Position numbers and translations under genes: made by a program. From the NCBI RefSeq assembly GCF_053078305.1, contig NZ_CP166879.1: a DNA stretch of 64,000 nucleotides, one strand, 5' to 3'. The stretch's first letter is position 1. Each line of letters begins with the position of its first letter. Below, in pieces: positions 22,463 through 22,937 of this stretch. Under the pieces are notes generated by a model that was not told the origin of the DNA, searched no databases, and saw only the letters and a program-made list of their open reading frames with translations.

Positions 22463-22723
22463 TTAAATTTTATCCGCGTGGTGCATCAGCACAAATTTAT
22501 CCCACAACTGTTCTTCTGTCTCGACATGTTGCGGATCTTTCACAATAGTATTGGGGATCGGGCACACCTTCTGGCAGGTTGGTGTCTCGTAGTGCCCTAC
22601 GCATTCGGTACACTTATCGCTGTTAATCTCATAGATATGATCTCCCATTGAAATCGCCTCATTCGGGCATTCGGGTTCACACATATCACAATTAATACAG
22701 CGTTTAGTAATTAGTAAAGACAT
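22463..22723 (-). CDS. yfhL: Ferredoxin-like 4Fe-4S protein YfhL (5' end and promoter supplied by prophage)
   Basis: 86 aa, two CxxCxxC...CP clusters; N-terminus [16 protein letters not shown] differs from the [16 protein letters not shown] remnant at attR. Confidence 0.85.
22676..22693. repeat. attL core (18-bp direct repeat)
   Basis: ttcacacatatcacaatt identical to 63072..63089; lies within yfhL codons for INCDMCE. Confidence 0.6.
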
Positions 22724-22937
22724 TTCAATGGATTACCGTTAAATTATTTTAAAATCAGTAAGTTGTATCGAGTTTGTATGCTTTACAGTTATTAACTTAC
22801 TGTATGTTGATCCAGTGTATTTAACCTTGATAAACTCAGTCCAGCAACACAAAACCGCAACACATTGCATTTTGTCCCGTAGAAAAGACTTGTATGTGTG
22901 AGCTTGTTTTCTGCGCCTACGCAGATAAGGATTGAGA

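Follow-up and report, generated by a model that had tools for sequence, protein, structure and literature searches.

Replacement of the 5′ end of a target gene by an incoming element has been described for the dusA-specific integrases (DAIs) that prophages and genomic islands encode (Farrugia et al. 2015, PMC4482086). Such an element enters a conserved protein-coding gene at a single site within its 5′ end, with int adjacent; the replacement 5′ end that it brings preserves the ORF, the original one remains at the opposite boundary, and putative -10 and -35 elements have been proposed in the element-derived upstream DNA (PMC4482086). The gene yfhL, which encodes a 2[4Fe-4S] ferredoxin, is likewise already known as a prophage site. 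As described in the relevant part of Bujak et al. (2020, PMC7556043), the Serratia phage vB_SspS_OS31 (MT843276) inserts in a host 2[4Fe-4S] ferredoxin gene and similar prophages occur elsewhere, while passages of two further papers name yfhL as a newly identified Stx insertion site in STEC (PMC10675304, PMC12029490). In the passage that concerns such genes, Bobay et al. (2013, PMC3603311) put yfhL among the prophage-"disrupted" genes, with wrbA, mlrA/yehV and yecE, and the same source cites the icd integration case. The passages of PMC3603311, PMC7556043, PMC10675304 and PMC12029490 drawn on here make no mention of 5′-end replacement at yfhL.

Here we analyzed a stretch of 64,000 nucleotides from contig NZ_CP166879.1 (hereafter the window), in which we consider it highly probable that a temperate phage has inserted in the 5′ coding end of yfhL via a tyrosine integrase, that its attP carries an imitation of the yfhL start, and that full-length YfhL is thereby kept. 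Like the DAIs, the element has int beside its single integration site, which falls within the 5′ end of a conserved coding gene; it provides a new 5′ end that maintains the ORF, and leaves the displaced one at its far boundary. Unlike the DAIs, its target is the small ferredoxin gene yfhL, its core lies on a Cys-ligand motif, and a conserved LexA-like box is found in the gap between int and yfhL. As its target is yfhL and not dusA, we do not count the integrase as a member of the DAI clade, and by analogy the yfhL cassette appears to work like the dusA system at a different gene. The icd elements (e14, phage 21) and tRNA phages carry a diverged duplicate of the part of the gene beyond the crossover, which keeps the target intact; elements of that type exchange the 3′ end and do not touch the promoter or the start codon, whereas the prophage in the window replaces the start codon, the ribosome-binding region and the upstream DNA. 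Insertions in wrbA, mlrA/yehV and yecE also lie within an E. coli coding gene, but there the ORF is split, whereas yfhL stays full-length. The features on which the following analysis draws are, in order of position:

22463 to 22723, minus strand: chimeric yfhL coding sequence of 86 codons (core and codons 17-86 host, codons 1-10 phage-borne)
22676 to 22693, plus strand: attL core, 18 bp, an exact repeat equal to yfhL codons 11-16 (NCDMCE, register by translation), including the cluster ligands Cys12 and Cys15
22694 to 22723, minus strand: phage-borne yfhL codons 1-10, ATG TCT TTA CTA ATT ACT AAA CGC TGT ATT, including the start codon and Cys9
22694 to 63071: prophage body of about 40.4 kb, with early and late phage regions
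22724 to 22937: phage-derived region between yfhL and int, read divergently (P′ arm and regulatory DNA), covered by an alignment of 50 unique cassette sequences and by a conservation profile
22743 to 22771, minus strand: candidate phage-supplied yfhL promoter, TCGATA, 17-nt spacer, AATAAT; weak, matching 9 of 12 consensus positions
22798 to 22817: LexA-box-like palindrome, TACTGTATGTTGATCCAGTG, the sole match of its pattern in the window
22807 to 22836, plus strand: candidate int promoter predicted from the sequence, TTGATC, 18-nt spacer, TAAACT, with TG at 22828-22829; 8 of 12 consensus positions
22814 to 22843, minus strand: second candidate yfhL-facing promoter, TGGACT, 18-nt spacer, TACACT; weak, 8 of 12 consensus positions
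22846 to 22865, plus strand: AACACA direct repeats, candidate arm-type Int sites (AACACAA at 22846, AACACAT at 22859; a third at 22952-22958)
22938 to 24335, plus strand: tyrosine integrase gene, 465 aa from the ATG at 22938; the ORF opens with TTG at 22932
24332 to 24532, minus strand: excisionase-like helix-turn-helix gene, 66 aa; it converges on int, and the two share 4 bp (24332-24335)
62952 to 63071: P arm of attP, about 120 bp, with AACACAT at 63014 and 63026 (plus strand) and at 63055 (minus strand)
63063 to 63119, minus strand: displaced native yfhL 5′ fragment, an 18-codon orphan ORF identical to the 5′ end of yfhL at the empty site
63072 to 63089, plus strand: attR core, exact repeat
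63120 to 63174, minus strand: native yfhL upstream region (the yfhH-yfhL gap), cut off from yfhL by the prophage
63175 to 64000, minus strand: 3′ part of yfhH (MurR/RpiR regulator), a gene that runs past the window end

The boundaries of the element were defined by the 18-mer TTCACACATATCACAATT, which occurs exactly twice in the window, both times on the plus strand; no pair of copies arose in any of 100 dinucleotide-preserving shuffles of the window. The core is codon-aligned (AAT TGT GAT ATG TGT GAA, encoding NCDMCE) and covers codons 11-16 of the 86-codon yfhL, while the third base of codon 10 differs between the two ends (ATT at attL, ATC at attR) and hence lies outside the core. Joining the left and right outer flanks at the core produced one alignment of 2218 bp, at 96% identity, to the prophage-free strain 14EC033, whose annotation at this site reads pdxJ-acpS-shoB-yfhL-yfhH-yfhB; the rebuilt attB is a colinear acpS-shoB-yfhL-yfhH locus. 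Of 5426 complete E. coli genomes, 5269 had an empty yfhL site by a 202-nt probe spanning the rebuilt junction, at a coverage of at least 80%, and in all of these yfhL starts MALLITKK. The attL junction, in which yfhL is joined to int, was covered in 159 complete E. coli genomes, including O55:H7 CB9615, ETEC H10407, IAI1 and O103:H2 12009, and every one of the 159 is annotated with YfhL next to a "tyrosine-type recombinase/integrase". As 5269 empty sites and 159 junctions were found among the 5426 genomes, nearly all interrupted yfhL genes in this collection are due to one cassette. The predicted excised attP junction was present in two metagenomic viral contigs (L026 and L038), each in the order phage right end, core, phage-borne yfhL start and int; L026 matches the right end of the window at 98% identity over 61170-63089 and then continues through the core into int. 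Repeats at both ends, an adjacent int, an empty attB and an attP junction are together those expected of an element integrated site-specifically by a tyrosine integrase.

To the left of yfhL, the window carries recO, pdxJ, acpS, the ohsC sRNA (21789-21865) and the shoB toxin ORF. Scans for RNA genes found no tRNA or Rfam RNA gene at either prophage junction; an RNA gene as the integration target was ruled out, there being no tRNAs and ohsC being the only nearby Rfam match.

An earlier note on this DNA, made from the sequence alone, had placed a prophage in the 5′ coding end of yfhL, a placement borne out by the repeat pair, the rebuilt attB and the attP contigs. Its statement that the core lies within yfhL was correct, but the codons are 11-16 and not 10-16, given the differing third base of codon 10. 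The contrast it drew between an intact left-hand yfhL beginning MSLLITKRC and an attR fragment beginning MALLITKKC was reproduced by translation, and its view that the core is neither in a tRNA nor at a gene 3′ end agrees with the position of the core and the lack of RNA genes at the junctions. It had also named a prophage-free reference with the phage-type N-terminus and upstream sequence, or a repeat that does not mark the junction, as results that would speak against it; the 5269 of 5426 genomes with an empty site start MALLITKK with upstream sequence as at attR and hold neither MSLLITKR nor the int-proximal DNA, and the one-piece alignment of the rebuilt attB and the attP junction of L026 and L038 place the crossover at the repeat.

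The predicted integrase matches PF00589 (1.2e-6) and phrog_1 (5e-26), with a weak match to the arm-binding family PF13356; a search of NCBIfam returned no model matching it, and in lysogens RefSeq names it 'tyrosine-type recombinase/integrase'. The protein encoded by the convergent gene matches the excisionase families phrog_4745, phrog_66 and phrog_1553, with TIGR01764 below its cut-off. Because int and this excisionase-like gene converge and overlap by 4 bp, int needs its own promoter in the att-proximal gap. Leftward early transcription would cross int antisense, toward yfhL.

The attP comprises the P arm of about 120 bp, the core, and a P′ arm of about 245 bp up to int. The P arm (62952-63071) is the sole right-end stretch common to the window and the Stx2b prophage of STEC1590. 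Five of the 11 AACACAT matches in the 64 kb fall within about 130 bp of the two cores, and the block AACACaaA.ccGCAACACA is conserved in all cassettes aligned. The AACACA(T/A) repeats in both arms are probable arm-type Int sites, as judged by their sequence and position.

We next considered the gene that results from integration. The chimeric YfhL differs from the native protein only by A2S and K8R, the other 84 positions being identical; the family varies at residue 8. Over residues 1-78 the chimeric protein reaches 135.7 bits with the NCBIfam YfhL equivalog model NF033683, above the cut-off of 86, which assigns it to this family of 4Fe-4S dicluster ferredoxins, and it matches the structure of E. 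coli YfhL (PDB 2ZVS). The first cluster motif, CxxCxxCxxxCP, is intact, with Cys9 supplied by phage DNA and Cys12 and Cys15 lying in the core. The host codons 1-10 at attR (ATG GCG CTG TTA ATC ACT AAA AAA TGC ATC, followed by the core) differ from the phage-borne codons at 11 of 30 nucleotides, but only two residues change; 11 randomly placed changes would give two or fewer residue changes with a P of about 3e-5. The core thus lies in the first codons, at positions 11-16, the phage supplies codons 1-10 with an in-frame start, and the full-length ORF is kept, a pattern of 5′-end replacement and not of 3′-end reconstitution. As the full 86-codon ORF persists with two substitutions, the locus also does not have the form of a disrupted gene.

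Integration exchanges the DNA upstream of yfhL as well. At the empty site yfhL starts 55 bp past the yfhH stop, and this gap contains a perfect TATAAT on the minus strand (63160-63155) with a poor -35, as read from the sequence; a promoter scan of the native yfhH-yfhL gap found no full promoter. In the lysogen the upstream DNA of yfhL is replaced by phage DNA, with 208-214 bp between the yfhL ATG (22723) and the int start (TTG 22932 or ATG 22938), in keeping with the roughly 200 bp of phage DNA shared divergently with int that had been proposed. The promoter scan returned a sole weak site upstream of the chimeric yfhL (22771..22743), whose -10 ends 20 nt before the ATG and which is kept in 22 of 49 cassette variants. 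A relaxed scan added a second site (22843..22814), kept in 31 of 49 variants, with a -10 that overlaps the LexA-like box. The -35 of the candidate int promoter lies inside the same box, and the TGATAAACT block is conserved in the cassette alignment. These matches make it likely, but do not prove, that the phage DNA provides the signals for yfhL transcription in lysogens; of the proposal that the prophage replaces the yfhL promoter, the replacement of upstream DNA stands, while promoter activity of the phage DNA is predicted from weak consensus matches. Equally, these weak and only partly conserved matches mean that yfhL could be silent in lysogens.

Within the yfhL-int gap the LexA-like box is a local peak of conservation (0.97) beside a trough of 0.70-0.79 (22760-22789), and 46 of 49 unique cassette sequences retain the CTG-N10-CAG of the box. 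We take TACTGTATGTTGATCCAGTG to resemble an SOS box, its left half presumably matching the recA operator. Candidate LexA control of int, and perhaps also of yfhL, is a testable idea raised by this sequence, and a conserved LexA-like box in the phage-derived upstream region might influence yfhL transcription in lysogens.

These promoter predictions bear on the alternative that the gene is effectively disrupted, in which the chimeric ORF, cut off from its native promoter, is not usefully expressed and the phage codons persist only as DNA required beside the core by Int and its accessory proteins. Such a reading would agree with the "disrupted" label given to yfhL in the passage of Bobay et al. 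noted above (PMC3603311), with the weak and incompletely conserved promoter predictions in the phage upstream region, and with the stranding at attR of a native upstream region that has a perfect TATAAT. A constraint of DNA recognition, however, predicts conserved nucleotides, whereas it is third positions that vary; none of the lysogen junctions examined has lost the peptide, the reading frame or the start codon, which is ATG or GTG, and RefSeq annotates full-length YfhL in lysogens. We therefore regard effective disruption as unlikely, and favour maintenance of a full-length YfhL by the phage-borne 5′ end.

Evidence for such maintenance beyond the window came from related integrases. Searched with the integrase, IMG/VR yielded 80 loci whose int is 75-100% identical; in about 75 of them the element-borne N-terminus, which varies synonymously, is M[S/A]LLITK[R/K]. 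Reference genomes of other species were sought with a 21-mer that is invariant at the start of int, giving seven (Pantoea, Shimwellia, Tatumella, Serratia, Edaphovirga, Kluyvera and an enterobacterial MAG); each has an intact yfhL 188-215 nt upstream of int, and three of these genes have a GTG start. The GTG-start element-borne genes, each a full-length ORF (VALLIT[K/T]RC...), are those of Pantoea stewartii (L086), Tatumella morbirosei (L088) and Edaphovirga cremea (L091). What was observed directly comprises both junctions, an empty site, an excised attP, an intact chimeric ORF and the conservation of this design across a family of Enterobacterales integrases.

A further alternative is a passive relic, in which an ancestor excised imprecisely with the first yfhL codons of another enterobacterium and reconstitution of the gene is an unselected by-product. 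The pattern of synonymous differences fits a copy from a diverged orthologue, and would also arise from a single capture of a 5′ piece of yfhL from another species. Exchange between host and phage copies is seen too: two IMG/VR loci (L009 and L049) have hybrid junctions, in whose first ~260 nt codons 5-10 are host-like (MSLLITKK; ...GATGCATTTTTTAGTGATTAGTAAAGACAT) and identity with attB extends to about 38 bp, a pattern that points to recombination of the phage-borne yfhL start with the displaced host one. Against a relic, the segment keeps its start codon and its frame in at least eight genera and among integrases as little as about 70% identical, and it gains its own synonymous changes while column conservation in the neighbouring 22760-22789 falls to 0.70-0.79; capture as the origin is in any case compatible with later selective maintenance. 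yfhL is reportedly dispensable in E. coli, which would weaken an argument from strong selection. On balance we think that a relic without selection is quite unlikely. That the 18-bp repeat is a coincidence, with the true ends elsewhere and MSLLITKR an allelic variant, is hardly credible at all and already refuted by the attP junction seen at the repeat and the empty site rebuilt exactly there, to which may be added the absence of paired copies in 100 shuffles and the association of MSLLITKR with the integrase in 159 genomes and of MALLITKK with empty sites.

Taken together, these observations suggest a model that retains selection on the phage-borne 5′ end. Recombination by the tyrosine integrase would direct the phage, whose early genes match those of an Stx2b prophage and whose late genes are those of a SEN34-like myovirus, to the 5′ coding end of the 2[4Fe-4S] ferredoxin gene. 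Its attP would carry a 48-bp imitation of the yfhL start, with 18 bp of identical core and 30 bp of diverged sequence for codons 1-10, and the ~210 bp of phage DNA past this imitation would also serve the divergent int. Crossover at the core would join host codons 17-86 to phage codons 1-10 at attL, giving full-length YfhL, and would strand the native first 16 codons and their upstream region at attR, 40 kb away. The phage-borne 5′ end would have been kept by selection to preserve YfhL.

The unit that carries this 5′ end is found in phages of different types. The Stx2b prophage of STEC1590 (L084, NZ_CP129345.1) matches the window at the attL junction, int, xis and the early replication genes, and has the same 18-bp cores at both ends; the genes in common include int, xis, the SNF2 helicase, DNA polymerase, DUF2815, DUF2800 and the VapE primase. 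STEC1590 then continues with lambdoid late genes and stx2b, whereas the prophage in the window has SEN34-like myovirus late genes and no toxin, which by sequence comparison appears as a clear mosaic joint between morphotypes. OS31 has an int 76% identical to that of the window, a 23-bp att at the same place in the ferredoxin gene, and MALLITKR with a start codon next to att, the same design as in the window prophage, although it is a siphovirus (Hendrixvirinae) with a different backbone. In many loci, homology to the window stops just after xis. Because homology ends there and the Stx2b prophage has the same unit, int-xis-attP can be regarded as a mobile cassette common to different phage types, compact at about 1.9 kb. 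Related phages with the same attP, to which the earlier note had pointed as a check, include the Stx2b prophage and OS31. Its further remark that 5′ replacement is less common than 3′-end reconstitution holds, although such replacement was already documented for the dusA integrases (PMC4482086).

Database records of these elements vary in where they end. In IMG/VR, most contigs of this family (L004-L083) have the yfhL stop codon, which lies 475 nt upstream of int, as their exact starting point, so that a host ferredoxin gene is counted there as viral. When the int region was compared with the phage collection by megablast, the matches were confined to 72 bp at the ends of records. These GenBank records (ON470579.1, L001, 1-4000, and others), deposited as the phage genomes vB_EcoM-606R2, 611R5 and 689R2, hold host tadA, pgpC and yfhH, start inside the helicase gene and are without int and attP; they are prophage predictions with mis-set ends.

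Within the prophage body, the early region encodes an SNF2 helicase, a DNA polymerase, a CI-like repressor and a primase-helicase, and the late region, which includes a DNA invertase gene, is of the SEN34-like myovirus type. Identity of the late genes is about 98% with E. coli prophage records (vB_EcoM-606R2 and relatives) and about 82% with Salmonella phage SEN34. The invertase gene (61215-61805) adjoins oppositely oriented ORFs resembling tail-fibre and tail-fibre-assembly genes, and the stretch 59819-61805 resembles an invertible segment for host range. The early region has islands of low GC (about 0.37) at 25986-28192 and 30388-31017, with ORFs that match phrog_6084 or phrog_10579 or have no match. 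Two further low-GC ORFs of 215 and 113 aa (GC about 0.36) lie on the minus strand at the right end of the prophage (61886-62935), the 113-aa product matching phrog_17793, a family with no function assigned. PADLOC returned no matches for six low-GC ORFs of the prophage. As the right-end ORFs run in the same direction as the stranded yfhL promoter and 5′ fragment across attR, they could be read by a host promoter only when the phage is integrated. A broader proposal, which we offer tentatively and consider rather improbable, is that of a yfhL-dedicated integrase family, an Enterobacterales-wide counterpart of the dusA integrases, in which the LexA-like box, placed on a bidirectional promoter region, would bring yfhL under new control and make both int and yfhL SOS-regulated in lysogens, and the stranded yfhL promoter would drive the right-end low-GC genes only in the integrated state.

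For pangenome and prophage surveys, and for Stx-phage typing by yfhL, the practical consequence is that yfhL insertions are to be scored as reconstituted and not as disrupted. The ~1.9-kb int-xis-attP cassette, with a conserved target in many Enterobacterales, is a possible integration tool. After dusA, yfhL provides a second well-supported case of elements that bring a spare 5′ end, start codon and upstream region to the gene they enter, and, if the LexA-like box is functional, lysogeny would alter the regulation of a host ferredoxin.
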